Shown: in pieces, positions 9,605-56,511 of the stretch
Numbering within the stretch: the stretch's first letter is position 1
Layout of the letters: the number at the start of each line of letters is the position of its first letter
Assembly: GCA_964521295.1 (NCBI GenBank)
Contig: CAZFRF010000001.1
Span: forward strand, 705,016 to 769,015
From: an uncultured Gammaproteobacteria bacterium
Lineage (GTDB): Bacteria; Patescibacteriota; Microgenomatia; Levybacterales; UBA12049
Reading direction: 5' to 3'
DNA: 64,000 nt
Translations under genes and position numbers: made by a program
The notes under the pieces: model-generated
What the model was told of the DNA's origin: nothing
The model's input: the letters and a program-made list of their open reading frames with translations, nothing else
Database searches by the model: none

Positions 9605-10356
9605 TTTAATTTAACTGGAACTAAAGACATAAACGTGGTTCCTTTTCTATTCAAAGCAGGGATTGTTGTGGAGAATTTCCAGCCATTGCCTTGCTCATAG
9701 CAATCGCTTGGGGAAGCAGTAATGATTTTGTCTGTTGCTGGATCAGCGTCTACTATAACAAAGGTGTGAGCGCAAGAATTGCAACCAATCCAGTTCTTGG
9801 TAGAGGCAAGTATATACCAGCCCGCATTCGTAAAGCTACGAATCTGCATAATATCGGTGTGGGTTAAGGGTTTACCATCAACGGTATATTCACCCATGAT
9901 ATCCATTTGAGCTCTTTTGAGACCAACCGAGGAGAGAAAGCTTGGTTCAGTCATTTTTCGAGGACTAGATCCAACGCAGTCAATCCCCCCAGTACAGCTG
10001 CGGTTTCCCGGAAACCAAGCGATGCCCTTTTCTTCAAAAAGCCTAGATACAGTAACCGGGTTAGCTATGTTTGCATCAGATTGCTTTGCTTTTAGGCCAT
10101 ATGTCGCAAGAACCATAGCTACGCTTGATGGTCCACAACCAGAGCTTGCTATTGTGCCCGAATCGTATTTATTTGAATAATTAGACTGACAGTAAAATTT
10201 GAAATCTCCGTCTGCGTTTCCGCCAGAGCCGATGATAATTTCAAGGTCGGAAGATTGTGCAAAAACACGTTGAATAAGAAAAGCAGAGGAAAGGATTACT
10301 CCAACCAGGAATAGTATGGTAAAGACAGCAATTTTGTTTTTCATATTATCTGCCAC
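9601..10356 (-). CDS. Secreted peptidase C39-like (Peptidase_C39_2/CHAP-like papain-fold) protein, a putative cell-wall hydrolase of the T4SS-like locus
   Basis: Signal peptide, then SSGCGPSSVAMVLATYG, which closely matches the catalytic-Cys motif of the C39_2 family. A His-containing downstream motif (CAHTFVIV) follows. Confidence 0.5.
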   Translation of the reverse strand: MADNMKNKIAVFTILFLVGVILSSAFLIQRVFAQSSDLEIIIGSGGNADGDFKFYCQSNYSNKYDSGTIASSGCGPSSVAMVLATYGLKAKQSDANIANPVTVSRLFEEKGIAWFPGNRSCTGGIDCVGSSPRKMTEPSFLSSVGLKRAQMDIMGEYTVDGKPLTHTDIMQIRSFTNAGWYILASTKNWIGCNSCAHTFVIVDADPATDKIITASPSDCYEQGNGWKFSTTIPALNRKGTTFMSLVPVKLK

Positions 10357-11746
10357 TAATGGCTGGACAGCTATTATTACAATTATATCTTATATAGCTG
10401 CAGCTTGAAGCTTTATTGTTTTTTTCGCAAGTCCTTTGCTTCTCCCAGAGTTTTGCACATACGGGTTGGTCTTTGTATTTTTTAGTTCCGCACATGCATC
10501 TTGCGGTTCCCCAGTATTCAAAACTGTTGTCTTGTTGCTTGTTGGTCCAGATTGCATTTTGAATTTGTCTTTGCCATGTAACATCTCCTCTGTAGGAAAG
10601 CTTCTTCCAAGGCTGACCAGGGGGATTATTGCTGCACATTTGAAATCTTCCCCAAGTTCCTAGCGCAGCGCAGTTTCCGCTGGAATTATGATTTCCGGCA
10701 TCATGTCCATTTGGACTACCAGATTCGCAGTCTGCAAGATCAGACCAAAAGTCAACCATGGAGTCAGTAATTGGCTTATTTAAAGTATCTGCTATTACTT
10801 GCTTAAATTTTTTTTCTGTGTAGGTGCATTCAGGGTCGCCAAAATTTGCTGGTTTAAGTTGCTCTTTGAAAGGCGAAAGCTTGGTGTCTACCTCAATGAT
10901 GTTCATTATTCCACCATACTTATTGCAGGTCTTATCTGAAGGAGGGCTATCCATACCAGAGTACAGATCTCCTTCGGTGGTATCTATGTCATCGGTTGCC
11001 GTTACATCACCAAACCCACTTAACTTAAGAGAGACAGTTGTTGTTCCGTTCTTAACGCCAGGAGCAATTTTGTCAGAAATTGAGATTAAATAACTGTTGC
11101 CTGGACCCTTTTGTAGGGTACTTAGTTTCCAGCCATATCTAAATTGATTTTTAGCGCTAATTATTCCTCCAGAAGAAAGACTGTCGTATGCGGGATTTGT
11201 GCTATTTTTAGTTAAACTACTAAAGAACGCGGTGTTAATCGTGATATATACCCAGGCTTTATTTGGATCTACCTTTATTTTACTTTTATCAGCAAACACA
11301 AAGGCATACACGGTTATGTTTAAATTTCCTGTTTTGTTGTCTAGTACAGGGCAGTTCGTTCGAGAAGAGCTGCTGCAGCTAAGATATGCGTATCCACCAT
11401 TGAAGGTGAGTATTTTGGGTAGATTGGACGGAGGATTGTTTTGCGAGGATTCTGTTGTTTGTTGGGTAGTGCCTAATCCTCCTCCGCCGCCAAGTATGCT
11501 TAATAGCAGGGTGGTTACAAATAGAGCTACAAATACCCCTATTACTCCCCAAACCGCTGGAGAAAGTCCTGAGACAAGCGATTGAACGGTCTGTGCAGTA
11601 GAGTAAGCTCTTTGAGTGCTTTTAACAAATCTCCAGGCATTTCGTGCTTGTTTGGCTCTGTTGAGATTTTGTTCTAAAAACGATTTGTCATTTTGATTAG
11701 AGCCTTTATCTTCCTGAGCGTTTATTTTTATCTCATCGTCTTGCAT
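10346..11746 (-). CDS. Membrane-anchored protein with a C-terminal lysozyme-like/SLT (GH23-like) motif, a VirB1-like lytic transglycosylase candidate
   Basis: Cytoplasmic N-terminus, one TM followed by a Gly run, and a large Cys-rich ectodomain. CESGSPNGHDAGNHNSSGNCAALGTWGRFQM resembles the ES-x-NP...S-x-GA-x-GLMQ catalytic signature of SLT domains. Confidence 0.4.
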   Translation of the reverse strand: MQDDEIKINAQEDKGSNQNDKSFLEQNLNRAKQARNAWRFVKSTQRAYSTAQTVQSLVSGLSPAVWGVIGVFVALFVTTLLLSILGGGGGLGTTQQTTESSQNNPPSNLPKILTFNGGYAYLSCSSSSRTNCPVLDNKTGNLNITVYAFVFADKSKIKVDPNKAWVYITINTAFFSSLTKNSTNPAYDSLSSGGIISAKNQFRYGWKLSTLQKGPGNSYLISISDKIAPGVKNGTTTVSLKLSGFGDVTATDDIDTTEGDLYSGMDSPPSDKTCNKYGGIMNIIEVDTKLSPFKEQLKPANFGDPECTYTEKKFKQVIADTLNKPITDSMVDFWSDLADCESGSPNGHDAGNHNSSGNCAALGTWGRFQMCSNNPPGQPWKKLSYRGDVTWQRQIQNAIWTNKQQDNSFEYWGTARCMCGTKKYKDQPVCAKLWEKQRTCEKNNKASSCSYIRYNCNNSCPAISGR

Positions 11747-11748
11747 TG

Positions 11749-13530
11749 TTAAGCCTCCTTATTTTTCAGTATTTCTTGCGGGTTTGACGTAATCATTTCA
11801 TGCTCAAAAGGAGCTGCTACGATTTGTATGGCTACATGATTTTGTCCTGCGAAAAACAACCCTTCTCCAATATTGGCAGAGAGAAGTAGTTCTTTTTCAC
11901 CTTGAGTTAAGTAAAACACGTCTGAAACTAGGTCAATTTCTGATGGACTTTGCTTTAAAATCATTTGGATAGAAGAGTTAGACAAAACAGCCTTTCCATA
12001 GTCTGTGGAAAGGAAGTCCTGAACGTCCTGTGTGGCAGTAGTAAGCCCCAGGTAGTACTTTCTCGATCTTTTGGCAATAGAATACACAAATGAGGCAGAG
12101 TCTTCATATTTCATCATGTACCAGGCCTCATCTAGTATTAATAACCTTTTTTTTAGATCTTTTCTAACCTTTGTCCAAACAAAGTCTAAGATTATATGCA
12201 TCGCAATTGGCCTTAACTCCTCTTCTAGTCCGCGCAGGTTAAAAACGGTGAAGGGGTTAGAGATGTCAAAGTTTGACTGTTGGTTAAAAATCCCGGACAA
12301 AGAACCCTTGATAAATTTTTCAAGCATTAGGGCGAGTTCTTTGGCTTTTTCTTCTTCCATCCCAAGCAAGACTTTGTATAGATCCTCCATGATTGGCGGC
12401 GTCCTCTTTTGGGTGGATGGTTCAACCGTAATGCCTTTTTGCCTATATGTTTCAACAAGCGCTCTATCTAGTATTGCATCGTGGGCTGGGTCTAGTTTGC
12501 CTAGAACTATTTTTAATAATCCATGGAGACTAAGTATTTTGAGCCCCAGTTCGTTTTCGCCCTCTTCGTAGAGACCGGTTAAATCAAAGGGGTTAATTTT
12601 AATAGCCGATGAGGCATTAAAGCTAACTTGTTCTCCGCCTAGGGTCTGAGCTAATTTTTCATACTCTCCTTCGGGATCGATGATTATGACTTCTGTTCCA
12701 AAGATAAACTGGCGCATTGCTTCAAGTTTAATTAAGTAAGATTTTCCGGATCCAGATTTGCCGAGAACAACCTCGTTGGCATTTTCTAGGCTAAATCTGT
12801 CAAAGATAATTAAGGATCCGTTTTGTTGATTTATTCCATACATTATTCCTCTATCTTGAGTAAGGGTTGCAGATGTAAAAGGAAAAGTAGACGCAAGTGA
12901 GGTCGTGTCCATATTGTGGGTAATCAATAGTTTATCTGATGCAATTGGAATTGAAGACTTAAACCCATCCTCCATTTGTAACGTGGCAGTTTTGGATAAA
13001 AGGAGGAGGGAGCTAAGCGTTGAATTTAGATTTTTTGACGCTTCGTGTAGTTCCTCTAATGAATCAGATGCAAGGGATACGTATAGGCTAACCTGGAAAA
13101 ATCTTTCCATCCCTTTTGCTAATTCTTCTTGTACGCTAAGCGCGTCTTCCAACGATGCTTGAACAGTAGGGTTTGTCTCTAATCCTTCTTCCTCGTCGGA
13201 GGCAAGGGTCGCTTCCATTTCAGCAATTTTTCTTCTTAAATCAGATAAAACATCTGGCGTCGAGGAGGGGTAGATGAACATAGAGACGTTCATTGAATGA
13301 TCAAAGTTTATTAGTGGTGCAAGCCAGTTTGGATTAACATACCTTGGGTAGCCTGCTATAAACAAAGTTTTGTGAACCTTTTCTCCTACTCGAATATTGT
13401 TGAAATCAACCTCAACAGATGAAGGGGCAATAATATCTGGGATTGAGTTTGTCCCTCTTTGTAGCGCTTGGAGTCGAGGATCTGTTACGACCTGATTTGT
13501 TTCTTTATTTTGCTTTTTTTTGCCAAACAT
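11749..13530 (-). CDS. VirB4/TrbE/CagE-family T4SS ATPase (C-terminal ATPase domain)
   Basis: Walker A GKSGSGKS and Walker B LLILDEAW. The DEAW motif is characteristic of VirB4. Confidence 0.8.
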   Translation of the reverse strand: MFGKKKQNKETNQVVTDPRLQALQRGTNSIPDIIAPSSVEVDFNNIRVGEKVHKTLFIAGYPRYVNPNWLAPLINFDHSMNVSMFIYPSSTPDVLSDLRRKIAEMEATLASDEEEGLETNPTVQASLEDALSVQEELAKGMERFFQVSLYVSLASDSLEELHEASKNLNSTLSSLLLLSKTATLQMEDGFKSSIPIASDKLLITHNMDTTSLASTFPFTSATLTQDRGIMYGINQQNGSLIIFDRFSLENANEVVLGKSGSGKSYLIKLEAMRQFIFGTEVIIIDPEGEYEKLAQTLGGEQVSFNASSAIKINPFDLTGLYEEGENELGLKILSLHGLLKIVLGKLDPAHDAILDRALVETYRQKGITVEPSTQKRTPPIMEDLYKVLLGMEEEKAKELALMLEKFIKGSLSGIFNQQSNFDISNPFTVFNLRGLEEELRPIAMHIILDFVWTKVRKDLKKRLLILDEAWYMMKYEDSASFVYSIAKRSRKYYLGLTTATQDVQDFLSTDYGKAVLSNSSIQMILKQSPSEIDLVSDVFYLTQGEKELLLSANIGEGLFFAGQNHVAIQIVAAPFEHEMITSNPQEILKNKEA

Positions 13531-14183
13531 TATTTTACCTCCTTTCCTTTTACAATCGCCTTACCCTCTGTTTCATGTTTGGGGGTAAGGGACATCTCAT
13601 TGAAAATGTCATAATAGAGCTTTATTAGCTTATTTCGATCTAATATTTCCGATTTTAAGCCAATTCGTCCAAGTTGATTTCGAACGGTTTCTGCTTTAGA
13701 TCTTAAAACAGGCCCTGCTTGTTTGGAAAACTCTTCTAGAGCGCTAAGTCCAGCTACTTGCTTTGCTCCAAACACGCCTTTTTCTAAAGAAGAATAGGGA
13801 ACAACAATATAAAAGTTCTTGTCTAGTACGGAATTAACCTTAATTAGTTCTGCGACAAAATTTCTATACATCTGAATATGCTGAGAGAAGTTAGGGTTAA
13901 GTGTTTTTCTGGCCTCTTCGGTTAGCGCGTCCAGATAGCTTGAGATATTTAAAAGCTTGCTTCTTACAACTATTTGAATAGAAAAAGAAAGAGAGTTTAA
14001 CAGAGCTGAGTATGCATAGATTTTGGCATTTTGTTCTTGTTCCGATAGTAAATCGAAGTTAGTTGCTTCTACTTTTATTACCATGCAGGCGTTTCCGCCT
14101 GGAAGCACAACTACGTCATCAAATATATCTTGAATCTCAATAAATTTTTGGGTTGAGTTTGGTTTTATGCTTGCTTTGCCCAT
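13530..14183 (-). CDS. Hypothetical 217 aa soluble protein translationally coupled to VirB4. It is probably the detached N-terminal domain of VirB4.
   Basis: Its stop overlaps the VirB4 ATG (TAATG). 217 + 593 = 810 aa, the canonical VirB4 size. No TM. Confidence 0.35.
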   Translation of the reverse strand: MGKASIKPNSTQKFIEIQDIFDDVVVLPGGNACMVIKVEATNFDLLSEQEQNAKIYAYSALLNSLSFSIQIVVRSKLLNISSYLDALTEEARKTLNPNFSQHIQMYRNFVAELIKVNSVLDKNFYIVVPYSSLEKGVFGAKQVAGLSALEEFSKQAGPVLRSKAETVRNQLGRIGLKSEILDRNKLIKLYYDIFNEMSLTPKHETEGKAIVKGKEVK

Positions 14184-15361
14184 TAGTTAAAAAGAGACCT
14201 CCTTAGCTCTTCTCTTTGATCGGTAGAGATAACCTCAATAGGCATAATTACTTCTCCTTTGGTTTCAAATGCAACAGAGTCAAATCGATTTTGTCCTTTT
14301 GGATCCTCAAAACTAATGGTATATTTCCCATTGTTAAGAGCTGTGGCTGAGGCAAAATGTCCTAGGGCATTAGTTTTAAAAGCTCTTACAGCGTTTCCTT
14401 CTTCATCTTTAACCTCGACTAAAACATTAGCTAAGGGGTTTCCCCTAGGATCTTTAATGATTCCCGTAAGTAAGTTGGGGAATTCAGGGACACTTGGAAG
14501 TCCTACACTTTGGCTCATTGAATGAGGAATACTTCTTACAAATTTAGTCTCTTTTGCAGGAGCAGTCGTAGCAGTAGAAGGAGTAAAAACAGGCGAGCTT
14601 GAGCTATTCATATTTTTTTGAATCTCAATTAGTTTTTTCTCTAATTCTTCTTTTTGAGTTAGCATCTCATTCATTTGTTTTTGCAATTCCAAGACCTTTT
14701 GATGTGCGTCTAAAAGAGCTTGGGGATCAGCTTGGGCCTGTTTTTGTTCATTTACCTTTGCTTGAGCAAGCTCTTTTTCGAGTAAAGCAGCTGTTTTAAT
14801 TAATTCTTGGTTTTCTTCTGGCGCTTTAATTTTCTCTGGAGCTTGGGAAGAAGGCATTGGTTGGGCCACGGGTTGTCCTTGCCTAGCGTAGTAGTGCGAG
14901 GGAATACTGTTGGGAACGTTAATGTTGGAAGTTTGAGCTGAATATGCATTTAGATTTTGAAAAAATACAGATTCTTTTTGATCTAGTTTATTTTTTGGCT
15001 TATTTTTTATAAAGTTTTTAAACTGTTGGCTAGCTAGGGCATTTGGGTCTTCTTGTTTTGCCCATAGGCTTGCTCCCTGTTTTTGATATATATATTGAGT
15101 TGGGCTAAACACGGCTTTAAAAAAATGGGCAATCATTAAGTCTAAAGGCCGCCCAGATACTTGTAAAAAGGCAAAGCCTGCGCCAATTGCTCCAAAAGCT
15201 ATAGCTAAAGGAGCCTTGATAACAAAAGGCAAGGGCAAGATGTATGTAATCCAACCAATAATAGCCCCAGCTGCAATATAGGCAAACTGCTTTACCGTCA
15301 TGTCTCCAATTAGCTTGAATTGAAAACCTGTAATGTCTTGTGGAATAGGATGATTTTCCAT
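14183..15361 (-). CDS. Two-TM, VirB3-like membrane protein fused to a long coiled coil and a C-terminal CarboxypepD_reg-like beta-sandwich domain
   Basis: Two N-terminal TM helices lie directly upstream of VirB4, the usual VirB3 position. A Gln/Glu/Lys-rich coiled coil follows. The C-terminal region GIIKDPRGNPLANVLVEVKDEEGNAVRAFKTNALGHFASATALNNGKYTISFEDPKG matches the CarboxypepD_reg pattern. Confidence 0.4.
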   Translation of the reverse strand: MENHPIPQDITGFQFKLIGDMTVKQFAYIAAGAIIGWITYILPLPFVIKAPLAIAFGAIGAGFAFLQVSGRPLDLMIAHFFKAVFSPTQYIYQKQGASLWAKQEDPNALASQQFKNFIKNKPKNKLDQKESVFFQNLNAYSAQTSNINVPNSIPSHYYARQGQPVAQPMPSSQAPEKIKAPEENQELIKTAALLEKELAQAKVNEQKQAQADPQALLDAHQKVLELQKQMNEMLTQKEELEKKLIEIQKNMNSSSSPVFTPSTATTAPAKETKFVRSIPHSMSQSVGLPSVPEFPNLLTGIIKDPRGNPLANVLVEVKDEEGNAVRAFKTNALGHFASATALNNGKYTISFEDPKGQNRFDSVAFETKGEVIMPIEVISTDQREELRRSLFN

Positions 15362-15463
15362 AATAAATACCTCTATTTCTAGTATTTACCGTGAAAAATA
15401 TCATTTCAAGGTTATCAAAATATAACAAACCTCAAATTAAGTGGATCTACTTTTGCGTGAAAA

Positions 15464-15784
15464 CTATTTAAAGGAAAAATTATCTAAACCAGAAACTCCA
15501 GTTATGCGACCAATTAAATTGACGATAGCAAAAGAAGCAAAAATTAAAATCAGCCCAAGTAGAGAGTAGAGGAAGGTTTTTCTTGCAGAGTCAATGGATT
15601 TTGAATCTCCTCCTGAATTGATAAATTTAATTCCTGAATAAATTATCATAAATAGAGCAATAGTTCCTGCGCCAGCAAGTAGCCAATTTACAGCTAGGGC
15701 TATTAAATCAGGAATACAAGTAAGGTTGGGGATACCATGTCCTCTGCCTGCCATTTGAGTGCAAGACCAATCCATCTTAAACAT
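15464..15784 (-). CDS. VirB2/TrbC-like T4SS pilin (two-TM hairpin), paralog 1
   Basis: 106 aa. A hydrophobic helix, then the loop YSGIKFINSGGDSKSIDSARKTF, then a second helix. The same architecture is seen in the three neighbours. Confidence 0.5.
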   Translation of the reverse strand: MFKMDWSCTQMAGRGHGIPNLTCIPDLIALAVNWLLAGAGTIALFMIIYSGIKFINSGGDSKSIDSARKTFLYSLLGLILIFASFAIVNLIGRITGVSGLDNFSFK

Positions 15785-15828
15785 AATAAATATACAATAT
15801 CATTCCTAAGTAGTTTTAACAATAGATT

Positions 15829-16251
15829 TTAACGGCCGATTGATGGAAGGACAAAGAAGTTTGCTGTTTGTCCAGGAATAAAGAATCCAAGTAAGATATT
15901 CAATATAAAGTAGGATAAGAATATTATGACTAAGCCAATTACGGCTGCAATAATATGCTCTCTCGCTGCTCCAACTGCAGATTTGTCTCCACCTGAGGTT
16001 AACCATTTAAATCCACCCCAGATTAGGTAGAAAAGAGCAACAATTATTGAGATAACAAAGATAAAAGAAATGATTGCTGGAATAGCATTACTAACGGAGA
16101 ATCCACATAAAGGATTAAATTGCCCAGCTGGGCAAAGCTCAACTCTGGTTGCTCCTGCTGGAACAGTTGGGGTAGGGGTAGCCGCCATTGCTACGTTAGC
16201 TAATAATAAATATGCTGGCGTTAGGACTGAGGTAGATAATAATTTTTTCAT
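15829..16251 (-). CDS. VirB2-like T4SS pilin with signal peptide, paralog 2
   Basis: Signal peptide ending AMA, a Cys pair in the N-terminal segment, and the core LYLIWGGFKWLTSGGDKSAVGAAREHII between two TM helices. Confidence 0.5.
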   Translation of the reverse strand: MKKLLSTSVLTPAYLLLANVAMAATPTPTVPAGATRVELCPAGQFNPLCGFSVSNAIPAIISFIFVISIIVALFYLIWGGFKWLTSGGDKSAVGAAREHIIAAVIGLVIIFLSYFILNILLGFFIPGQTANFFVLPSIGR

Positions 16252-16294
16252 GTATATATTTAGACTAAACAGTTTTTAAATAATTGTCAAGAGT

Positions 16295-16810
16295 CTATTT
16301 ACAGCTATATGCAATAGCTCCGCCGGTAACGTTAGATGCTTGACATGTTTGTCCTGCGTTACAGCATTTTGGTCCACAAGCAAACTTTGACCCTGTACAT
16401 GTTGCACCGCTTGTTGTGCTATTCGTTATTGAGGGTATGGTAAAGTTGCTCAAACTAAAGCCTGGGATAAAGAAGTTTATTACAATATTTAGGATTAAAT
16501 AAGATAAAAAGATAACAATAAGGCCAATGATTGATGCAATAATATGCTCTCTCGCTGCTCCAACTGCAGATTTGTCTCCACCTGAGGTTAACCATTTAAA
16601 TCCTCCCCAGATTAAATAAAGCAGGGCAACAATTGTTGAGAGAACGAAGATAAAGTTTATAAAACTAGCTATAAGTTTCGCAGGGTCTCCCGCTGCATTA
16701 CAGATTACACCAAAGCTTCCAGTTGGGCATAATGTGCTAGCTGCAAAAACAGGAGAGGTTAATCCAAAAAAGCTGAAGGAAAAGATAAGGCCTGTGAGTA
16801 GTTTTTTCAC
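16295..16810 (-). CDS. VirB2-like T4SS pilin with signal peptide and a C-terminal Cys-rich extension, paralog 3
   Basis: Its core is identical to paralog 2. The 16541-16610 nt stretch is nearly identical to 15951-16020. It adds a tail with 7 Cys. Confidence 0.5.
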   Translation of the reverse strand: MKKLLTGLIFSFSFFGLTSPVFAASTLCPTGSFGVICNAAGDPAKLIASFINFIFVLSTIVALLYLIWGGFKWLTSGGDKSAVGAAREHIIASIIGLIVIFLSYLILNIVINFFIPGFSLSNFTIPSITNSTTSGATCTGSKFACGPKCCNAGQTCQASNVTGGAIAYSCK

Positions 16811-16851
16811 CTTAAATAAATCTTAGGCACAATTTACTGGTTTGTCAAGTC

Positions 16852-17199
16852 CTAGGGTAGTTTTAGTAAGTTTACCCCAAAATAGACGCCTAAAATATTT
16901 AGTATAAAGTAGGAAATAAAAACAATTACTAATCCTACAATCGTAAATCCGATTCTTTGTCTTGCCTGTTGAACTTTTTGCTTGTCTCCAGCGGAGGTCA
17001 TCCATTGCCAGCCTGAGTAAATTAATATTATTAATCCAAAAACAATAGCAAAGAGCGTGATAAATGCAAGGCCTGTTTTAATTGCCTTAATTAAAGTATC
17101 AAGTCCTCCCGTCGGCATACCACTTACACTTTGAACCTTTATTGGTTGCTTATCTGGGCCCATTATTGAGAGCGCAATTAGTTTCATGTTATTTTCCAA
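16852..17199 (-). CDS. VirB2-like T4SS pilin, paralog 4
   Basis: Core motif IYSGWQWMTSAGDKQKVQQARQRI flanked by two TM helices. Confidence 0.45.
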   Translation of the reverse strand: MENNMKLIALSIMGPDKQPIKVQSVSGMPTGGLDTLIKAIKTGLAFITLFAIVFGLIILIYSGWQWMTSAGDKQKVQQARQRIGFTIVGLVIVFISYFILNILGVYFGVNLLKLP

Positions 17200-18379
17200 A
17201 TCCAGGCAATCTTAGTATGTCATATCCAATAGTTTGTAATATCACTAAGGAAAAGATTGTAAAAAGAAGACCGATAATGGCAGCGGTTAGTTGGTCTTTC
17301 GCTCCTTGTATTTTTTCAGGATTTCCCTGCGAAACCATGAGTCTGTAGCCTGAAAAAATAATTAAAATAGTGGCAATTCCGCCAATGACGCCAAATAAAA
17401 TTCCCATTAAAGTTTTTATAAACTCTCCAGGTCCACCTGTAAAGTTTATTTTTATGCCTAGGCCTGTTTGTATTTGGCAATTCTTATTTTTTACCTGATC
17501 TTCGCTACAAATGGGGGTAGGCGTGTTGTATCTGTATTTTGGACTTTCAAATGTAATTGCGGATTTAACAACAGAGCACTTTTCCTGTCTATCGTTAGCG
17601 CATCTGCATTCGTAGTTGCTGCATACGCTGGTGGATTTTCCGCAGGTACCGGAGGTTATGCATCCTTTTAGACATTTTCCTGATATGCAGGCATCTCCTA
17701 ATGATCCTCCCGTTTGGCAGTAGTAGCCAGAAGCGCAATTTCCTCTAGGCTTAGAGTTGCCTGCTCCGTTTTGACTGCACATGTTGTAGTCTTCGGAGTC
17801 TGGAGTGATCCTGCAATCTTGATTATTTCCTTGTCCATCTCCTGGGGGAGGCTTGGGCTCCGAGCCATCTGAATTATTAATAGTTAGGCTGCTTTTGCAG
17901 ATAGCAAATCCTTCGTCATCGCAGGTTGCTGGAGACGTGTTTTGTCCAAATACAGCATTGCAGAGCTTAAGAGTGTATTTGCCGCTTTTAAGAGTGTTAA
18001 TGTCTTGTAGGGTGTCTGTACGGAAAACCAAAGGCTCCCCAGATTGCTTGTCTTCCACCCACGTTGCACATCCTAAGCCAAACTGATCTGACAGGTTGGG
18101 GTTTGGAGTGCAAAACTCCCCGGTAGCATCCCCAATGATAACTGCGAAGTACTGGTTTCCATTAGAATCATTATCCGAAATATTGTTAAAAGTAAGCTCT
18201 TTAACAGATCCTGGATTTATTTTGGAGTTTTTAGTATTAGGGTTAAAAGAAAAAGAGCATTCGCTTATTGCAAGAGCCTGATCTTTTAAAACAAAGAATA
18301 GGCAAGAAACAAAAAAGAATAATAAAAAAATTTTTCTTAACACCTTTTTATCGTAACGCAACAATGAGGTAAATTTCAA
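17189..18379 (-). CDS. Large secreted Cys-rich protein with a C-terminal VirB2-like pilin module, a putative pilus-associated adhesin or minor pilin
   Basis: Signal peptide, then about 300 aa with more than 30 Cys. The C-terminal 75 aa (IFSGYRLMVSQGNPEKIQGAKDQLTAAIIGLLFTIFSLVIL) repeat the pilin hairpin architecture. Confidence 0.45.
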   Translation of the reverse strand: MKFTSLLRYDKKVLRKIFLLFFFVSCLFFVLKDQALAISECSFSFNPNTKNSKINPGSVKELTFNNISDNDSNGNQYFAVIIGDATGEFCTPNPNLSDQFGLGCATWVEDKQSGEPLVFRTDTLQDINTLKSGKYTLKLCNAVFGQNTSPATCDDEGFAICKSSLTINNSDGSEPKPPPGDGQGNNQDCRITPDSEDYNMCSQNGAGNSKPRGNCASGYYCQTGGSLGDACISGKCLKGCITSGTCGKSTSVCSNYECRCANDRQEKCSVVKSAITFESPKYRYNTPTPICSEDQVKNKNCQIQTGLGIKINFTGGPGEFIKTLMGILFGVIGGIATILIIFSGYRLMVSQGNPEKIQGAKDQLTAAIIGLLFTIFSLVILQTIGYDILRLPGFGK

Positions 18380-28460: not shown

Positions 28461-28464
28461 AGTT

Positions 28465-28552: not shown

Positions 28553-28568
28553 AATTGTTGTGTTTGTG

Positions 28569-49102: not shown

Positions 49103-49651
49103 ATGTCTATATATACTAAGTTTGGTGATAAAGGTAAGACCTCTTTGTATGGCGGTAAAACCGTTTCTAAAGGCAGCGTTAGAGTAGAAGCTTATGGAAA
49201 CCTAGATGAATTAAATAGCTTCTTAGGAGTCGCTGTAAGTCTTTTAAAAGATAAAGAGGTAAAAAAGGAAATTATCAGTATTCAAAACGATCTATTTGAG
49301 ATTGGATCGTCAATTGCCTCAACTGCAACCAATAAGCATAAGATTTTAGGTGTATATTTGAAGCAAAGAGTTATTGAATTTGAAGAGGAAATTGATAAAA
49401 TAACTAAAAAATTACCAGAGCTTGAAAATTTTATCTTACCAGGAGGCTCAGAAACAGGTTCAAGGTTACATTTTGCTAGAACCATAGCTAGAAGAGCAGA
49501 GAGAAGGATAGTAACTTTAGCTGAAAAAGAAAAAGTTTTATCAGAAGTACTTATTTATTTAAATAGAGTTTCAGATTTGTTATTTATGTACGCAAGACTT
49601 ATAAATTTAAAAGAAAAGAAAAAAGAAATAATTTGGAAAACTAGAGATTAG
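49103..49651 (+). CDS. ATP:cob(I)alamin adenosyltransferase, PduO-type
   Basis: MSIYTKFGDKGKTSL...EAYGNLDELNS is the PduO/MMAB family start. Confidence 0.75.
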   Translation: MSIYTKFGDKGKTSLYGGKTVSKGSVRVEAYGNLDELNSFLGVAVSLLKDKEVKKEIISIQNDLFEIGSSIASTATNKHKILGVYLKQRVIEFEEEIDKITKKLPELENFILPGGSETGSRLHFARTIARRAERRIVTLAEKEKVLSEVLIYLNRVSDLLFMYARLINLKEKKKEIIWKTRD

Positions 49652-49782
49652 TTTTCAACGGGTGAAAGCAGGCGAAAATCCTGCGCTGTGCCGCAACTGT
49701 ATAGTCAGAGCCCCGAATATAAATCTTCCGAGCAGAAGTATGTTTTTTAGCATACAACTTCTCGGAGACGAGGAGTTTTTTT

Positions 49783-51084
49783 ATGCACGAATTACCAAGA
49801 ACAGAGGCAAAATTACAACCAGCCTTCAGAGAACCAGGTTCACAAGTTTTAAGTGCTCCTTCATTTGAAGGATCGGTTAAAAGAGCAAAGACTCTAGTAT
49901 ATGAGCCTGAATTTGATAGGCAAATGTACAGGGCTTACTCAGGATTGTCTCCTGAAGATCAACGAATATTAAGACAATATACGACTCAGCAAGTAGAGAC
50001 TTATGTTGGAGAAAGATTAGGCGTGGTTGAATCAAGAATTAGGTGGAATATTGTTGAGGGAAAAATTATTCCCGAAGGAGTTGATACGCCTCTAGAAACA
50101 ATTATTGCTAATGGTGTTAACTGGAGAAGGTCATTTAACGAAAACGGAGAATTAAATGGAAACCCTGTAGATTTTACTAGGGAAGAGGCAGAGTATGAAG
50201 GTTTTTTAAAAAGCCAAGCTAGACTTACTGATCCCGAAACACCAGTTGGCGCAATTGACCTATCTGTTTCTCCTCCCGGCGGAGAAGGGTCAGATTATAA
50301 GCATAAATTTTTTGATGTTCGGGTTGTAAAAGAAGATGCAAGCGGGACAAGATATATTGAAGCAACTCGTTTTCTTTCAGATTTAAATGTCGAGGGATAT
50401 AGAGAGCAATTGGCTCCAGTTAAAGAATTTGCTGAGACCCCAACTCCTGAAGATTTCTTGAAAGACCCAATAGTTTTAGATGGAATATTTAGCGATGCTT
50501 CTGAGGTTGGTACATATTTATCAGGTGGAGTAAGAGCATTGGAAGTTCAAAGATTTGCTGAAATAAAATCCTTACTTAGGCCTTATATAATAAGTTACAT
50601 TAATTCTTTAATTAATAATCCTTACGCTATTTTAGATCATAATTTACGTTTAAATGCTATTGTTAATGAAGCTGATGCTGTTCATGATGCACAAGAATTA
50701 AAAGACCATCTATTGTTAAGAGCTAAGCGTCATTTTGCAGATTTTGCACCAAGCTCAATGGTTGAGCAAGCCGTTCAGATTCTTGGGCGTCAGAGGGTGA
50801 GACAAGCTGTAGTTCCTTGTCCGGGTGAGAGTGGCGGTTTAGATGTTGGCGGAGATCCTAATTTGGTTAGGGATCCTTTTTCGGTCGGAGATTTCGGTAA
50901 ACCGCCAATGAGCGAAGTGGAAAAAGCTAAGAAAGATCCTAATTTATGTAAGTGCTTAGGAAAGGACAATCCCCATTTTCATTGTCCTGGAAAAACCGAG
51001 GCTGGGAAAAAGTGTGAATCTGTAATTATAGTTGGCCAAGGTGTTTCAAGATGTCTAAAGTGTGGAGAAGGAAAGAAATGTTAA
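49783..51084 (+). CDS. Hypothetical protein with a C-terminal multi-Cys zinc-ribbon-like tail
   Basis: 433 aa ending CKCLGKDNPHFHCPGK...CESVIIVGQGVSRCLKCGEGKKC. Confidence 0.3.
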   Translation: MHELPRTEAKLQPAFREPGSQVLSAPSFEGSVKRAKTLVYEPEFDRQMYRAYSGLSPEDQRILRQYTTQQVETYVGERLGVVESRIRWNIVEGKIIPEGVDTPLETIIANGVNWRRSFNENGELNGNPVDFTREEAEYEGFLKSQARLTDPETPVGAIDLSVSPPGGEGSDYKHKFFDVRVVKEDASGTRYIEATRFLSDLNVEGYREQLAPVKEFAETPTPEDFLKDPIVLDGIFSDASEVGTYLSGGVRALEVQRFAEIKSLLRPYIISYINSLINNPYAILDHNLRLNAIVNEADAVHDAQELKDHLLLRAKRHFADFAPSSMVEQAVQILGRQRVRQAVVPCPGESGGLDVGGDPNLVRDPFSVGDFGKPPMSEVEKAKKDPNLCKCLGKDNPHFHCPGKTEAGKKCESVIIVGQGVSRCLKCGEGKKC

Positions 51085-51686: not shown

Positions 51687-54059
51687 ATGTTTATTTTTAA
51701 TCAAGTATTGCTATTAATTTACGCACTAATAATAACCATTATTTTAATGGGTATTCTTGCTATATTTGGTGCTGTTTTGGGTTATTTATTTGTATTGTGG
51801 CAAAGAAATAAAGATAAAGAAAAATATTCCTTAGATTCGATTCTTTTGCAAATCGCTCTTCCTAGGGATAATGAGGTTAAGATAGATGCTGCAGAGCAGT
51901 TCTTTAATGCTTTTGCCGGCATTAAAATAGGTGGTAGATTTGCTTCATTAAAATATCGACCCCATATTTCGTTTGAAATTGTAGGAACCCCTGGAGATAT
52001 TAGGTTTTACGTGTATGTTCCAAATAAGTATCGAGACATGCTAGAAAAACAAATTAACGCTTCGTATCCCGATGCAGAAATCTCAGTAGTTGAAGAAGGT
52101 GCTTCTAAAAGCGTTAGGGAGGGTCAAATTATTGGTAATGAATATAATATATTTTCTTCTCAAGGTCATGTTGCTCATAAAACTCTAAAGTTAAAAGATT
52201 CAAACTATAAACCGATTAAAGTTTTTAAAGAATATGCAGTCGATCCTTTATCTGCTTTAACTTCTGTTTTGGCTAAAATGGGAGAGGGAGAAGGGGCAGC
52301 GGTTCAGATTTTAATTACCGGAGCAGACTCTAAATGGAGTAAGTTAGGTAGGGCTCATATCGCTGAAACTAAAAAAAGAGAATCTAATCCAGAAACTGCT
52401 AAATATTCTTCAGACCCTAAAGAGCTCGAGGGAATTGAAAATAAGATTTCTAAGCCAGGTTTCTATGCAGTTGTTAGATTAGTTGTTTCCTCAACTAGTA
52501 AAGAAGCAGCTGAGGCTCATTTAAATAATTTAGAAAATGCTTTTGAACAGTTCGGCGGCGTAAATTCATTTACTAAAGATAAAACCAGATTCCAGGGAAA
52601 TTTTGTAACTGAGTTTATTTATCGTCATTTTCCAACAAGAGGAACGTTATCTGTATTAACAAGCGAGGAATTGGCAACGATTTGGCACTTACCAAACAAA
52701 TCCATTTCTACACCTAATATTTATTGGCTAAATGCTAAAAGAGCGCCAGCGCCTGCTCAGATTCCAACAAGTGGTTTGTATCTAGGAATGAGTAGTTTTA
52801 GAGGAATAGCCAAGCCAGTTTATATGACTGAGGATGATAGACGAAGGCATATGTATATTATTGGTAAAACTGGTGTTGGTAAGTCTCAGCTTTTAAAACA
52901 GATGGTAATTCAAGATGTTCAGGAGGGTAAAGGAGTTGCGGTTATTGATCCCCACGGAGATTTAATTGAAGATATTTTGTTAAGAATTCCTCCTGAAAGA
53001 GCAGAGGATGTTATTTTATTTGATCCATCCGACACGGATAGACCTCTTGGCTTGAATATGCTAGAGGCACAAACCGAGCAGGAAAAACATTATATCGTCA
53101 GCTCAATCGTTGGGCTCATGTACAAGCTGTATGATCCGAATAAAACAGGTATTATCGGTCCAAGATTTGAGCATGCAATTAGAAACGCAATGTTAACCGT
53201 TATGAGTGAACGTGGTAGTACTTTTATTGAAGTTGTTAGAGCTTTAACAGATTCTAATTTTGTTCAAGAATTATTGCCTAAAGTTCAAGATCCAATTATT
53301 AGACGTTACTGGACAGATCAGATTGCTCAAACTAATGATTTTCATAAATCTGAAACTTTAGACTACATTGTTTCTAAATTCGGTAGATTTGTTACCAATA
53401 AAATGATTAGAAATATTATTGGCCAAAGTAAATCATCTTTTGATTTTAGAAAAGCAATGGATGAAGGAAAAATCTTATTGGTTAATTTATCTAAAGGAAA
53501 AATCGGAGAAGAGAACGCAGCTTTCTTAGGTTTAGTTTTAGTTCCCAGAATTTTAGTTGCTGCTATGAGTAGGCAAGATATTCCTCAAGAACAAAGACGA
53601 GATTTCTATCTTTATGTTGATGAGTTCCAAAATTTTGCTACTCCAGATTTTGCTCAGATTTTGTCTGAGGCAAGAAAATATCGCTTGAATTTAATCGTTG
53701 CTAATCAATTCGTAGGCCAGATGGATGAAGAGGTTAAAAACGCTATTTTTGGAAACGTAGGTACAATTATGGCTTTTAGAGTTGGTGTTACTGATGCAAA
53801 TTATCTGCAGCATGAATTCCAGCCTGTTTTCTCAGAGGCTGATTTAATCAATATCGACGTCTTTAACGCTTACGTTAAAACGATCGTAGGTAATGCTCCC
53901 GTTACGCCTTTTTCGATGGACACGACTAAAGATATTAGTAAAGAACAAGCCTTGGACAATCCTAGAGTTGCAGAGCTAATCAAGGAACTTTCAAGAATTA
54001 AGTATGGAAGAGATGTAAACGAACTTGAGATTGAGATTGCCCAGAGAGCAAGGCTTTAG
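51687..54059 (+). CDS. Membrane-anchored P-loop ATPase, VirD4/TraG/TraD-like type IV coupling protein candidate
   Basis: N-terminal TM helices. Walker A GKTGVGKS followed by VIDPHGDL (the T4CP-like DP.G motif). Walker B LYVDEFQNF. Length is 790 aa. Confidence 0.5.
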   Translation: MFIFNQVLLLIYALIITIILMGILAIFGAVLGYLFVLWQRNKDKEKYSLDSILLQIALPRDNEVKIDAAEQFFNAFAGIKIGGRFASLKYRPHISFEIVGTPGDIRFYVYVPNKYRDMLEKQINASYPDAEISVVEEGASKSVREGQIIGNEYNIFSSQGHVAHKTLKLKDSNYKPIKVFKEYAVDPLSALTSVLAKMGEGEGAAVQILITGADSKWSKLGRAHIAETKKRESNPETAKYSSDPKELEGIENKISKPGFYAVVRLVVSSTSKEAAEAHLNNLENAFEQFGGVNSFTKDKTRFQGNFVTEFIYRHFPTRGTLSVLTSEELATIWHLPNKSISTPNIYWLNAKRAPAPAQIPTSGLYLGMSSFRGIAKPVYMTEDDRRRHMYIIGKTGVGKSQLLKQMVIQDVQEGKGVAVIDPHGDLIEDILLRIPPERAEDVILFDPSDTDRPLGLNMLEAQTEQEKHYIVSSIVGLMYKLYDPNKTGIIGPRFEHAIRNAMLTVMSERGSTFIEVVRALTDSNFVQELLPKVQDPIIRRYWTDQIAQTNDFHKSETLDYIVSKFGRFVTNKMIRNIIGQSKSSFDFRKAMDEGKILLVNLSKGKIGEENAAFLGLVLVPRILVAAMSRQDIPQEQRRDFYLYVDEFQNFATPDFAQILSEARKYRLNLIVANQFVGQMDEEVKNAIFGNVGTIMAFRVGVTDANYLQHEFQPVFSEADLINIDVFNAYVKTIVGNAPVTPFSMDTTKDISKEQALDNPRVAELIKELSRIKYGRDVNELEIEIAQRARL

Positions 54060-54073
54060 TATAATGCACCCAC

Positions 54074-54145
54074 GCGTCTGTAGCTCAGTGGTAGAGCGCT
54101 ACTCTTATAAAGTAGATGTCCTTGGTCCGATCCCAAGCAGACGCA
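54074..54145 (+). tRNA. tRNA-Ile, anticodon TAT (UAU)
   Basis: Acceptor GCGTCTG/CAGACGC, D arm GCTC-AGTGGTA-GAGC, anticodon stem-loop CTACT-CTTATAA-AGTAG, T arm CTTGG-TCCGATC-CCAAG. Confidence 0.6.
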
Positions 54146-54160
54146 CTTTATAGCCTCAAA

Positions 54161-54493
54161 TTAACGAAGAATAATTTTTTTATTAAACCCAGGTAAAACA
54201 AACCCTTTTTCCATTTGAATTTGACCTAACAAAATATCATCAATTGGAAACATCCTGGGTGTTTGGTCTGGTTCTTTAATTGCTGACCATGTCGCCATTG
54301 CCTGAACCCTTGGTCCATCAGGAGCAATGAGAACTGTTCTAATTTCATCGTATCTTGCGCCTGGATCTTTTTTGGCCTTAGAATACCAATGCCTAGAAAA
54401 GGTAAGAGAGTTATCGGGTGTTACTTCTTGTGGTCTTTTTAGAAATCTTCCTAGAAATCCAGTATCGACCACATATAGCGATCGTTCATTCAT
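54161..54493 (-). CDS. Hypothetical protein (110 aa) co-oriented with the recombinase
   Basis: ORF only. Confidence 0.25.
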   Translation of the reverse strand: MNERSLYVVDTGFLGRFLKRPQEVTPDNSLTFSRHWYSKAKKDPGARYDEIRTVLIAPDGPRVQAMATWSAIKEPDQTPRMFPIDDILLGQIQMEKGFVLPGFNKKIILR

Positions 54494-54494
54494 T

Positions 54495-55355
54495 TTATAA
54501 TTCTGTTAATGTAGAGGTTTCTTTACCTCTTTCTGGTACATATTGGAGATATCTTTCAGTTGTGGAGAGTCTTTTATGGCCTAAAACCTTAGATAAGACT
54601 AGGAGTGATACTCCATGTTTTAGGTGATGGGCAACAAAGGTATGTCTTAAATCATTTACTTTAGCACTTTTAATTTCAGCTAGCCTAAAATATCTCTCAA
54701 CTGCGGTTCTGATGTTTCTAATTAGGAAAGGTTTACCACTTTTAGTAACAAAAACATGCTCATCGGTTACTTTTGGTCTTAATTCTAAATATCTATCTAG
54801 AGCTTCTTTTGCTCTTTTATTTAAAGGAACATTTCTTTCTTCGTGTTTTTCGAATGGGGAAATGTGCAAAGTATCTTTATTAATATCTGAGAGTTTTAAA
54901 TTAGCGAGTTCGCCAATTCTAATACCGGTTTGTAGTAAAAGCTCAATAACAGCAAACATTCTAGCGTCATTTCTAGCAGCGTCTCTTAAGGCTCTGTATT
55001 CGGTTGGAGTTAATATTCTAGGTGGTGCAAGCTGGTACTTAGGGTGTGAGACTAAAAGTGAAGGATCATCGGTTATATATTCGCTGATTTTTAAGAATCT
55101 ATAGAAGGTTCTGGTTGAGTTAATTTTTCTAGATACTGATTTAGGAGTATATCCTTCCTGAGCAAGCTTTGCTAAAAAGGCATCTAAATCTTCCTTGGTA
55201 ACTTCATGAATATTAGCTCTTTTGAGCTCTTCTAAGAAGGAAATTAACTGATCAATATCCTTGCCGTAAGCAACAATTGTTGAATTGGATTTCTGATTAC
55301 CATGAAGGTAATTTTTGAATTCATCGTGGGCATTTCTTAAGCCAATTTGCTTCAT
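54495..55355 (-). CDS. Tyrosine site-specific recombinase (XerC/XerD-like or integrase)
   Basis: C-terminal RHTFVAHHL...LGHKRLSTTERYLQ catalytic R-H-R-Y region. An N-terminal SAM-like core-binding domain. Length is 286 aa. Confidence 0.75.
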   Translation of the reverse strand: MKQIGLRNAHDEFKNYLHGNQKSNSTIVAYGKDIDQLISFLEELKRANIHEVTKEDLDAFLAKLAQEGYTPKSVSRKINSTRTFYRFLKISEYITDDPSLLVSHPKYQLAPPRILTPTEYRALRDAARNDARMFAVIELLLQTGIRIGELANLKLSDINKDTLHISPFEKHEERNVPLNKRAKEALDRYLELRPKVTDEHVFVTKSGKPFLIRNIRTAVERYFRLAEIKSAKVNDLRHTFVAHHLKHGVSLLVLSKVLGHKRLSTTERYLQYVPERGKETSTLTEL

Positions 55356-55469: not shown

Positions 55470-55802
55470 ATGAAAAAAGCTGCGTATCTAATCGTAATAA
55501 TTGGACTCTGTTTAGTTATAAATAGTTTAGCTCACTCAATCTATAATTTGTGGCACAAGCAAGATCTTTTAGTTTCAGCACAGAGAAATTTAGCTTTAGC
55601 AAAGCAAAAAAACCAAGAACTTAAGGCTAAATACAAAATTGTTACGACTAAGGAATTTGTTGAAGAGGAGGCGCATGACAAGTTATTTATGGTTAGAAGT
55701 GGGGAACATCAAGTTATTATTACTGACAAAGCTAAAACTAACGCTAAGAAAGAATTTGCTCCTCATCCAAATTGGCAACAGTGGTTAGATTTATTTTTGT
55801 AA
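55470..55802 (+). CDS. FtsB/DivIC-like septum formation initiator (TM plus coiled coil)
   Basis: N-terminal TM, then a short leucine-zipper-like coiled coil (LALAKQKNQELKAKY). Confidence 0.35.
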   Translation: MKKAAYLIVIIGLCLVINSLAHSIYNLWHKQDLLVSAQRNLALAKQKNQELKAKYKIVTTKEFVEEEAHDKLFMVRSGEHQVIITDKAKTNAKKEFAPHPNWQQWLDLFL

Positions 55803-56424: not shown

Positions 56425-56493
56425 CGCGGGGTAGTGTACAGTGCACGTGAGGCTCATAATCTCACAGGCTAGGCGCAACTCCTAGCCCCGCAA
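56425..56493 (+). tRNA. Initiator tRNA-fMet (CAT) with C1-A72 mismatch and an atypical T loop
   Basis: CGCGGGG...CCCCGCA-A acceptor with the C1xA72 mismatch typical of bacterial initiators. Anticodon loop CTCATAA. T arm CTAGG-CGCAACT-CCTAG lacks the usual TTC. Confidence 0.5.
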
Positions 56494-56511
56494 CATAGTC
56501 CCCAAATCTAT

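Follow-up and report, generated by a model that had tools for sequence, protein, structure and literature searches.

We analysed a 64-kb window of DNA from near a replication origin, the window being the whole stretch introduced above, and concentrated on a gene for a membrane-anchored P-loop ATPase that is followed by a tRNA-Ile(UAU) gene and, on the opposite strand, by the gene of a tyrosine recombinase (Table 1). In our reading, to which we give a probability of about 60%, this locus belongs to the core chromosome of a Levybacteria-like member of the Patescibacteria, has been inherited vertically and lies about 45 kb from oriC; it is not the edge of a mobile element, and the ATPase is an orphan homologue of the VirD4-type coupling proteins of type IV secretion systems (T4SS), acting by the mechanism proposed below. 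An earlier annotation, hereafter the original prediction, had left two alternatives: either the locus is a remnant of an integrative conjugative element (ICE) or mobilisable element, or the chromosome simply carries a XerC/D-like recombinase beside a tRNA gene.

For comparison, 80 related loci were fetched (1.36 Mb, about 2.5% of each genome) and labelled L001 onward. A contig from a Joint Genome Institute (JGI) metagenome, L082, is a closer relative of the window locus. The genes were found in a recurring order: class II ribonucleotide reductase (RNR), PduO, a variable interval (0.2-2.7 kb from PduO to the ATPase), a small partner open reading frame (ORF), the ATPase, tRNA-Ile(UAU), a second variable interval of 0-3.8 kb, the recombinase on the minus strand, DivIC, MurI and MurD. 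Within the 80 loci this order was seen in Levy-, Gottesman-, Woese-, Davies-, Shapiro-, Collier- and Dojkabacteria and in some Saccharibacteria. Downstream counts were made on the 51 loci with at least 4.5 kb of sequence beyond the ATPase: the tRNA-Ile(UAU) follows it in 36/51 and the convergent recombinase is present in 24/51. L082 exhibits the identical eleven genes in identical order, down to a small gene, orf110, that abuts the recombinase. Moreover, the identities of the ATPase and of the recombinase to the window proteins co-vary across genomes (r = 0.88, n = 34), as vertical co-inheritance predicts. The comparison of synteny that the original prediction proposed thus spoke for a core locus, the order being kept across Microgenomates lineages, and against an element boundary.

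The other checks proposed for an element pointed the same way. The ATPase gene is native in composition, with z = -0.04 for G+C content (GC), z = -0.20 for GC at third codon positions (GC3) and a relative synonymous codon usage (RSCU) distance among the lowest of the window. The recombinase gene is equally ordinary, GC is flat through the region, and GC, GC3 and codon usage of both genes are typical of the window. A direct repeat of the tRNA-Ile 3' end, as expected of an attachment (att) site, was searched for with segments of 17, 22 and 24 nt (the 17-nt tip, the 3' end and the anticodon arm), tolerating up to 3 mismatches. Within the 64 kb nothing but the tRNA itself was recovered, and general repeat finding over 44-64 kb returned chance-level pairs only. 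General profile scans gave no relaxase-like match among the neighbours of the ATPase. The placement near the origin was deduced from dnaA (6581-7939) and from a minimum of the GC skew, calculated over the 64-kb window, near 6-7 kb.

Family, predicted structure and relatives of the ATPase

The ORF and its hydrophobic N-terminus were confirmed (790 amino acids), and the motifs reported for it are present: GKTGVGKS at residues 393-400, IDPHGDL at 420-426 and VDEFQNF at 644-650. The hydrophobic stretch covers residues 5-37. The anchor is kept in the orthologues, in which the Walker A, Walker B, SEARK, ANQ and FGNxG motifs are invariant (16 to 49 sequences compared). Pfam assigned TrwB_AAD_bind to residues 380-699 with 38.5 bits (cut-off 20.5) and TraG-D_C with 27 bits (cut-off 22), DUF87 also scoring above its cut-off. 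The closest solved sequence relatives are TrwB (E 4e-7) and DotL. No Pfam match to the FtsK_SpoIIIE motor, alpha or gamma domains (PF01580, PF17854, PF09397) was obtained at E <= 0.01, and FtsK chains were absent both from the PDB sequence matches and from the 50 best-scoring PDB fold matches listed. The decision between a type IV coupling protein (T4CP) and FtsK/HerA, which the original prediction had left as a check, falls on the T4CP side by Pfam, by solved sequence relatives and by fold matches, and the family call was right.

Within the window, the ATPase had been claimed as the only T4CP-like gene. Consistently, a scan of the large ORFs turned up just two P-loop ORFs of the VirB4/VirD4 type. 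The other one is the VirB4-like gene of a T4SS cluster beside dnaA and dnaN, whose protein aligns with the ATPase in the P-loop region only. The VirB4-type profiles P-loop_TraG, CagE_TrbE_VirB and AAA_10 are not among the Pfam matches of the ATPase, and NF045975 scored 20 bits on it against 590 required. The distance of 26 kb given earlier for the VirB4 locus has to be corrected: the VirB4-like gene lies 38 kb from the ATPase and the nearer edge of the cluster 33 kb. At about 26 kb there are two ORFs (19770-23303 and 23309-25150) with no Walker A motif and no Pfam match, and these may be what was taken for the VirB4 locus. They encode 1177 amino acids and 613 amino acids, respectively, the latter with a signal peptide and hydrophobic segments. 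As a separate observation, most genes of the T4SS cluster (9601-18379) and dnaA exceed the remaining window in GC and GC3, with z values of up to +2, though GC3 z is just about +0.4 to +0.9 for the PrgI/VirB3-like gene and for two of the pilin ORFs.

An AlphaFold (AF2) model of the ATPase was built on 49 sequences (predicted local distance difference test, pLDDT, 88.4; predicted template modelling score, pTM, 0.78). It predicts a long hydrophobic helix (residues 2-49), an alpha/beta domain corresponding to DUF8128 (PF26449; about 50-365) and a RecA-like nucleotide-binding domain of the TrwB/VirD4 type (about 370-790). An all-alpha insertion of eight predicted helices (464-592) is placed between strands 442-445 and 596-600. 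Using Foldseek, the motor part of the predicted model superposed on the whole soluble TrwB (target-normalised TM-score, TMt, 0.57-0.65) and on Cag-beta, and the best whole-chain E-values were obtained with TrwK/VirB4. DUF8128 modelled in isolation reached a pLDDT of 90.4. Its 14 top fold matches were all TrwK/VirB4 (E 1.6e-8 to 1e-5, query-normalised TM-score, TMq, of about 0.5), the next match being unrelated. On these models, the protein is best described as a TrwB-type motor preceded by a VirB4-like N-terminal domain and by a membrane helix of its own. To judge from the predicted N-terminal domain, it may dock on the membrane complex that VirB4 uses.

The nearest homologues carry Levybacteria or Patescibacteria names. 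Among more than 7,600 close homologues every named one belongs to Patescibacteria, and a scan of one genome per species recovered relatives in at least 596 species genomes. Sequence identity tracks taxonomy, from 73% in Levybacteria down to about 40% in Saccharibacteria and Doudnabacteria. At E <= 1e-3, 23,751 cluster representatives match the family. More distant full-length relatives (22-30% identity) are found on Bacillus, Streptomyces, haloarchaeal and Sulfolobus plasmids and in large Bacillus phages. Since these share the same full-length architecture, the family thus has deep roots in monoderm and archaeal mobile elements, the Patescibacteria gene being now core chromosome. Many relatives are fusions of 1,400-2,000 amino acids (proteins P0136-P0253), with the motor either C-terminal after about 950 extra residues or N-terminal before a long tail.

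Two further annotations were tried and rejected. A defence system was suggested by a PADLOC mad8 match (59 bits) and weak HerA matches on the ATPase; none was obtained for any neighbour, and no system could be called. A phage origin was suggested by PHROG 5156 and by Bacillus phage homologues of unknown function, and no phage genes were found in the neighbourhood.

A survey of Patescibacteria (Quinonero-Coronel et al. 2025, PMC12102498) counts 5,713 VirD4-type homologues in 2,918 genomes, only 148 of them near virB4, and describes relaxases as nearly absent and the T4SS as often located beside dnaA. It also reports that the t4cp homologue of Southlakia epibionticum lies far from virB4 and is non-essential, and that "exaptation cannot be ruled out". 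The essential T4SS cluster of S. epibionticum was described by Wang et al. (2023) as lacking a recognisable coupling protein. The layout of the window, with the T4SS at dnaA, a coupling-type ATPase tens of kb away and no relaxase, is thus the published norm.

The riboswitch and the proposed function of the ATPase

We propose that the ATPase is a membrane-anchored P-loop motor, probably hexameric, that would dock at the membrane, where its VirB4-like N-terminal domain could occupy a docking place of VirB4. ATP hydrolysis would then power the recruitment of a substrate, which may be protein or nucleic acid, or its delivery into the T4SS whose genes lie beside dnaA and include no relaxase, and the partner protein, made together with the ATPase, would act as adaptor.

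The small partner ORF ends 2 nt before the ATPase start. In most loci an ORF ends within a few nucleotides of the ATPase start or overlaps it. Its C-terminal amphipathic motif (LP.T..e..gl....W.a....k.k) is conserved across distant lineages and recurs in Levy-, Gottesman-, Woese-, Shapiro- and Dojka-type loci. The ORF is probably a dedicated, translationally coupled partner or adaptor of the ATPase.

Several points weigh against the proposed role in secretion. The link of the ATPase to the T4SS is by homology only, and 33-38 kb separate the two. The VirB4-like fold of DUF8128 comes from a predicted model, and no VirB4 signal was found at the sequence level, either by hhalign against the N-terminus of the window's VirB4 or by hmmsearch against the PDB. 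Classical T4CPs are devoid of a large VirB4-like N-terminal domain. The scores on the curated equivalog models are low: 51.8 bits against 366 for TIGR03743 and 36.7 against 250 for NF045973 (TraD and VirD4 CD1115), to which TIGR03754 can be added (37.7 bits, 647 needed). As the scores lie so far below the curated TraD and VirD4 cut-offs, the ATPase is a distant branch of the coupling proteins. Co-transcription from the riboswitch described below to the ATPase is deduced from gene packing and from the absence of predicted terminators. Finally, according to PMC10633639, the T4CP-like gene SEML1_0293 of S. epibionticum was classified as non-essential (NE) at all three time points though the T4SS genes are essential, and its supplements show read counts for this gene dropping about 4-fold over time, a hint of a mild fitness cost. 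SEML1_0293 is a probable member of the family by its Pfam architecture and NCBI name.

The genes preceding the ATPase had been described as unannotatable Zn-ribbon or Gln-rich proteins. ORF X indeed remained without annotation; what had been overlooked is an AdoCbl-II (adenosylcobalamin) riboswitch ahead of these genes. Rfam RF01689 matched 49651-49720 over the full length of the model with 41.2 bits (gathering score 36.5), 63 nt before ORF X. A terminator-like hairpin lying between them is a candidate expression platform, judged from its predicted fold. A custom covariance model was then built from seven instances of the riboswitch, on which the window copy scored 84.7 bits. In 10 related loci (Table 1) this model detected copies that share the strand of the ATPase and precede it by 1.6-3.9 kb, L008 having two, the second directly before its X homologue. 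In L024, L025 and L036, of Woese type, the only copy detected has the opposite orientation and lies shortly before the ATPase, and the covariance model detected none in the remaining, more distant loci.

ORF X is fast-evolving and lineage-restricted, with 20 homologues in 5.8 billion proteins, and contains the conserved motifs SPPG, GER and GCGxSGG. No match to it was found in Pfam, NCBIfam, PHROG or PADLOC, and a PDB profile search gave zinc-ribbon noise only. It is apparently the direct target of the riboswitch and could be an unrecognised B12-related protein. The zinc-ribbon ORF that overlaps its end has a counterpart of 49 amino acids at the same position in L008 and L082. In L004 (7677-9054) and L008 (6150-7061), a riboswitch placed after the RNR gene precedes genes for a secreted DUF4430 protein and for a membrane protein with DUF6580, candidates for the binding and uptake of B12. 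Both are missing from the corresponding position of the window.

From the riboswitch to the ATPase the genes are co-directional and tightly packed, with no convincing internal promoter or terminator predicted, and B12-dependent read-through into the ATPase is therefore possible. If so, the riboswitch and hairpin ahead of X, the zinc-ribbon ORF, the partner and the ATPase would lower transcription when adenosylcobalamin is plentiful.

This possibility bears on the best-placed alternative, which we nevertheless regard as unlikely, namely that the ATPase and its partner were exapted for a job independent of the T4SS, for instance the import of host DNA, nucleotides or a cofactor. In Levy- and Gottesman-type genomes this function would be induced under scarcity of adenosylcobalamin, with the B12-dependent RNR starved. 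Such a role is kept alive by the non-essentiality of the Southlakia gene in an organism whose T4SS is essential, together with the lack of linkage to virB4 in nearly all genomes. It is also consistent with the conservation of the ATPase, stronger than that of most genes around it, among Levy-type loci (67-73% identity, against 43-55% for PduO and 35-46% for DivIC) and with the same-strand AdoCbl-II riboswitches of 11 loci, the window included, which always head a packed co-directional array. The terminator-like platform after the aptamer is a further argument, as is the second riboswitch of L008, dedicated to X. However, the riboswitch may control only the gene adjacent to it (X, or DUF4430/DUF6580), and its nearness to the ATPase may reflect nothing but the conserved RNR-PduO neighbourhood. 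The opposite orientation of the Woese-type copies and the lack of detected copies in more distant loci also count against an exapted role, and there is no evidence for any substrate. A more specific form of the idea, to which we give little credence, sees no T4SS device but a riboswitch-gated operon that begins with the zinc-ribbon protein X and has the partner and the ATPase as its downstream half. Expressed at low adenosylcobalamin, it would provide these auxotrophic epibionts with a back-up, for example uptake of host DNA, deoxynucleotides or cofactor, when the sole RNR, which is B12-dependent, fails.

The T4SS is essential for epibiotic growth and the coupling-type ATPase is not. The locus offers three handles on the role of the latter: the coupled partner, the VirB4-like N-terminal domain suggested by the model and, in several lineages, the position downstream of an adenosylcobalamin riboswitch. 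In a locus that is otherwise ordinary core, the sole lead worth following is this riboswitch link. Should it prove functional, cofactor status would be tied to a secretion or uptake motor in host-dependent organisms.

The tRNA-Ile/recombinase junction

As first reported, a tRNA gene begins 14 nt after the stop codon of the ATPase. ARAGORN and Rfam agree on a tRNA-Ile with a TAT anticodon (in DNA letters). A promoter-like site overlapping the ATPase stop codon is probably the tRNA's own promoter, and L018, L026 and L029 have a TATAAT box at the corresponding position ahead of the tRNA. The tRNA-Ile(UAU) is an ordinary conserved neighbour with a probable promoter of its own. On the other side of it, orf110 has three homologues only (72-83% identity), all in the same position (for instance in L082 and L083), and no family match in Pfam, NCBIfam, PHROG or PADLOC.

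The 286-residue tyrosine recombinase announced on the opposite strand was recovered with 103.7 bits for Phage_integrase and 57.7 bits for Phage_int_SAM_1. Its profile scores were 171, 167 and 157 bits with XerC, XerD and XerA, 65 with the integron integrase and 16 with a generic integrase, and among solved structures E. coli XerD and archaeal XerA match it best. These Xer scores stay below the curated equivalog cut-offs of 335, 330 and 220 bits, respectively. Of 35 orthologues, 34-35 keep residues R146, R237, H260 and Y269, the Lys column being not reliably aligned. The His-II position is occupied by Asn (N234, turning HxxR into NxxR) in the window recombinase and its 34 orthologues (35/35). 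The second alternative of the original prediction, a chromosomal XerC/D-like recombinase beside a tRNA, is therefore supported by the XerC/XerD/XerA profiles and the solved relatives. The enzyme presumably serves dimer resolution at a dif site located elsewhere, and it would work together with a canonical FtsK, shown so far in one Saccharibacterium.

We also weighed, as a quite improbable explanation, that the junction is a resident recombination hot spot, with the Xer-like enzyme capturing or inverting short segments of cargo. Between ATPase and tRNA, and between tRNA and recombinase, lie intervals of 0 to 3.8 kb with unrelated genes, encoding PBP2, VapBC-like and RelE-like toxin-antitoxin pairs, Nudix, GIY-YIG, Fic, major facilitator superfamily (MFS) and methyltransferase-like proteins (L001, L003, L004, L008, L009, L013, L017, L019, L028, L050, L062, L068 and L070). 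The tRNA-Ile(UAU) is inverted in L002, L006, L011, L020, L035, L049, L061, L068 and L076, some of which are closely related to loci of the usual orientation. In L029, at about position 12400, a 14-nt remnant of the 3' end of an L026-type tRNA-Ile follows directly after the locus' own, different tRNA-Ile, and the near-orphan orf110 abuts the recombinase in the window. However, variable islands between conserved genes are common, no repeats were found to bound inserts within the window, the enzyme is an ordinary Xer by its scores, and in many lineages the recombinase and the ATPase lie 34-240 nt apart with nothing between them. We take the cargo variation, the tRNA inversion and the L029 remnant as signs of local gene turnover and not of an ICE. 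Matches to group I introns (66-67 bits) were also noticed a few kb downstream of the recombinase region, in L003 (18078-18278) and L001 (7094-7287).

The adjacency of the ATPase and the convergent Xer gene in many lineages, near DivIC, MurI and MurD, could also evoke a division-site DNA translocase, an analogue of FtsK working with the Xer enzyme in dimer resolution, the more so as the ATPase is a membrane-anchored motor of the FtsK-HerA superfamily. We rejected this reading as highly improbable. No FtsK_SpoIIIE, alpha or gamma signal is present, and both sequence and fold place the ATPase with TrwB and VirB4. ATPase and recombinase genes converge and are not co-transcribed, and the locus is origin-proximal, far from any expected dif site. 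Furthermore, by the supplements of PMC10633639, S. epibionticum possesses a canonical essential FtsK, SEML1_0096, with 4TM, alpha, motor and gamma domains, though this is a single genome and not of a Levybacteria-like lineage. According to the same supplements, its Xer-like recombinase SEML1_0117 is sited elsewhere than the T4CP-like SEML1_0293. A tblastn search with the E. coli FtsK motor found no match in the window and the 80 loci (1.36 Mb), which carries little weight at about 2.5% coverage of each genome.

Finally, the first alternative of the original prediction, in which the tRNA-Ile is the att site, the recombinase an integrase and the ATPase the coupling protein of an ICE or mobilisable element that now serves the chromosomal T4SS, retains next to no credibility. 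It draws on the classic signature of a tRNA beside a tyrosine recombinase, on the distant relatives of the ATPase (23-30% identity) carried by Bacillus, Streptomyces, haloarchaeal and Sulfolobus plasmids and large Bacillus phages, on the differing cargo of the intervals, toxin-antitoxin pairs included, and on the tRNA-Ile remnant of L029. Against it stand the absence of an att repeat in the 64 kb, the native composition, the Xer-like recombinase, the core genes RNR, DivIC, MurI and MurD on the flanks, and the absence of relaxase, mating-pair or other conjugation genes at the locus. The recurrent order is moreover common to lineages conventionally ranked as separate candidate phyla, in which ATPase and recombinase co-diverge, and any acquisition from a mobile element would predate the Microgenomates radiation. 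We thus retain the core chromosomal locus as our reading. More generally, in reduced genomes whose gene order is strongly conserved, a tRNA next to a tyrosine recombinase does not suffice for calling an integrative element.

Feature coordinates and comparison with known systems

Table 1. Positions of the features discussed; entries bearing an L label are numbered within the related locus named.
Feature	Position	Strand	Evidence or remark
Membrane-anchored P-loop ATPase, 790 aa	51687..54059	+	Pfam, motifs, predicted structure
Small partner ORF, 134 aa	51281..51685	+	low-complexity N-terminus
tRNA-Ile, anticodon UAU	54074-54146	+	ARAGORN; Rfam 70.1 bits
Promoter-like site TTGCCC-17-TATAAT	54037..54065	+	consensus scan
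orf110, 110 aa, unknown function	54161..54493	-	abuts 3' end of recombinase gene
Xer-type tyrosine recombinase, 286 aa	54495..55355	-	Pfam, NCBIfam, PDB matches; convergent with ATPase
Promoter-like site of recombinase	55427-55399	-	consensus scan
DivIC/FtsB-type septum protein	55470..55802	+	Pfam DivIC 42.9 bits; first gene of conserved right flank
Class II (B12-dependent) RNR	46667-49099	+	Pfam; conserved left flank by synteny
PduO-type cob(I)alamin adenosyltransferase	49103-49651	+	Pfam; conserved left flank by synteny
AdoCbl-II (cobalamin) riboswitch aptamer	49648..49725	+	Rfam RF01689; directly after PduO gene
Terminator-like hairpin, 9 bp stem + U run	49756..49777	+	consensus scan, minimum-free-energy fold
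ORF X, 433 aa, unknown function	49783..51084	+	C-terminal Cys4 zinc ribbon
Zinc-ribbon ORF, 55 aa	51051..51218	+	overlaps end of X; weak Zn_ribbon_8 match
T4SS cluster beside dnaA/dnaN	9170..18379	-	VirB4-like, PrgI/VirB3-like, three T4SS-pilin ORFs
VirB4-like ATPase, sole one in window	11749-13530	-	P-loop_TraG 95.7 bits
PrgI/VirB3-like gene	14183-15361	-	in T4SS cluster
Riboswitch copy, L003	8251-8328		covariance model
Riboswitch copy, L004	7637-7715		covariance model
Riboswitch copy, L006	6553-6623		covariance model
Riboswitch copies, L008	6000-6077 and 7595-7667		covariance model
Riboswitch copy, L009	7418-7548		covariance model
Riboswitch copy, L010	7485-7563		covariance model
Riboswitch copy, L012	7358-7435		covariance model
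Riboswitch copy, L014	6413-6491		covariance model
Riboswitch copy, L019	7286-7371		covariance model
Riboswitch copy, L082	8856-8933		covariance model

On the right flank, DivIC is followed by tRNA-Met genes and then by MurI and MurD. A 70-nt tRNA-Met(CAU) was called by ARAGORN at 56425-56494 and is unreported by Rfam at the gathering threshold. Elsewhere in the window, a cluster of six tRNA genes (25229-28653) comprises five tRNA-Ser and a tRNA-Arg(GCG). One tRNA-Ser, at 28465-28552 on the minus strand and adjoining tRNA-Ser(GCU), has the unusual anticodon ACU. A tmRNA gene is located at 29942-30306 on the minus strand (Rfam 96.1 bits).

The recombinase resembles the XerD, XerC and XerA resolvases in its SAM-like N-terminal and catalytic domains, its size, its R/R/H/Y residues and its best profile and solved matches; it differs from them by scores under the equivalog cut-offs and by the invariant Asn at His-II. 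With FtsK/SpoIIIE, the ATPase shares the nature of a membrane-anchored, probably hexameric motor of the same superfamily and an adjacent Xer gene, but it lacks FtsK motor, alpha and gamma signal, and the Saccharibacterium S. epibionticum, the sole Patescibacteria genome checked, has a separate canonical FtsK.

The full-length architecture and fold of the ATPase are found in Bacillus phage G gp156, in proteins of phages JL and 0305phi8-36 and in "DUF87 domain-containing" proteins of Bacillus plasmids. In BFVD, phage relatives were matched with E-values of 4e-49 and 6e-45 and TMq up to 0.68, PHROG 5156 was matched at E 1e-86, and by tblastn the phage and plasmid relatives cover 80-90% of the ATPase at 22-25% identity. 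These relatives sit on mobile elements, whereas the Patescibacteria ATPase is a conserved chromosomal gene.

TrwK/VirB4 of R388 has the same two-domain layout, an N-terminal alpha/beta domain followed by an ATPase domain. However, the N-terminal domain of the window protein shows no sequence similarity to it, and the window protein has its own membrane helix, is not encoded beside VirB3 and has no VirB4-type Pfam match. TrwB (R388), Cag-beta and VirD4 share with it the N-terminal anchor, the RecA-like domain with Walker A and B motifs and the inserted all-alpha domain. Compared with these three, the ATPase contains about 315 extra residues (DUF8128) between anchor and motor, is linked to neither relaxase nor T4SS and scores far under the TraD/VirD4 equivalog cut-offs. 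Its anchor, in the model, would be one long hydrophobic helix, against the two-helix anchor of classical T4CPs.

The closest correspondence is with the VirD4-type homologues of Patescibacteria, such as SEML1_0293, which share with the ATPase the PF10412, PF12696 and PF01935 architecture and the NCBI name, and likewise are chromosomal, without relaxase and distant from virB4, the T4SS lying beside dnaA. Nothing essential sets the window's ATPase apart from them, and it is a further case of the unlinked VirD4-type ATPase of Patescibacteria described in 2025. As far as it was consulted, PMC12102498 makes no mention of a linkage to tRNA-Ile(UAU), Xer and DivIC, of a coupled partner, of a VirB4-like DUF8128 fold or of an AdoCbl-II riboswitch. 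To the published picture the present analysis adds the VirB4-like fold predicted for DUF8128, the translationally coupled partner and the AdoCbl-II riboswitch that heads the gene array in several lineages.

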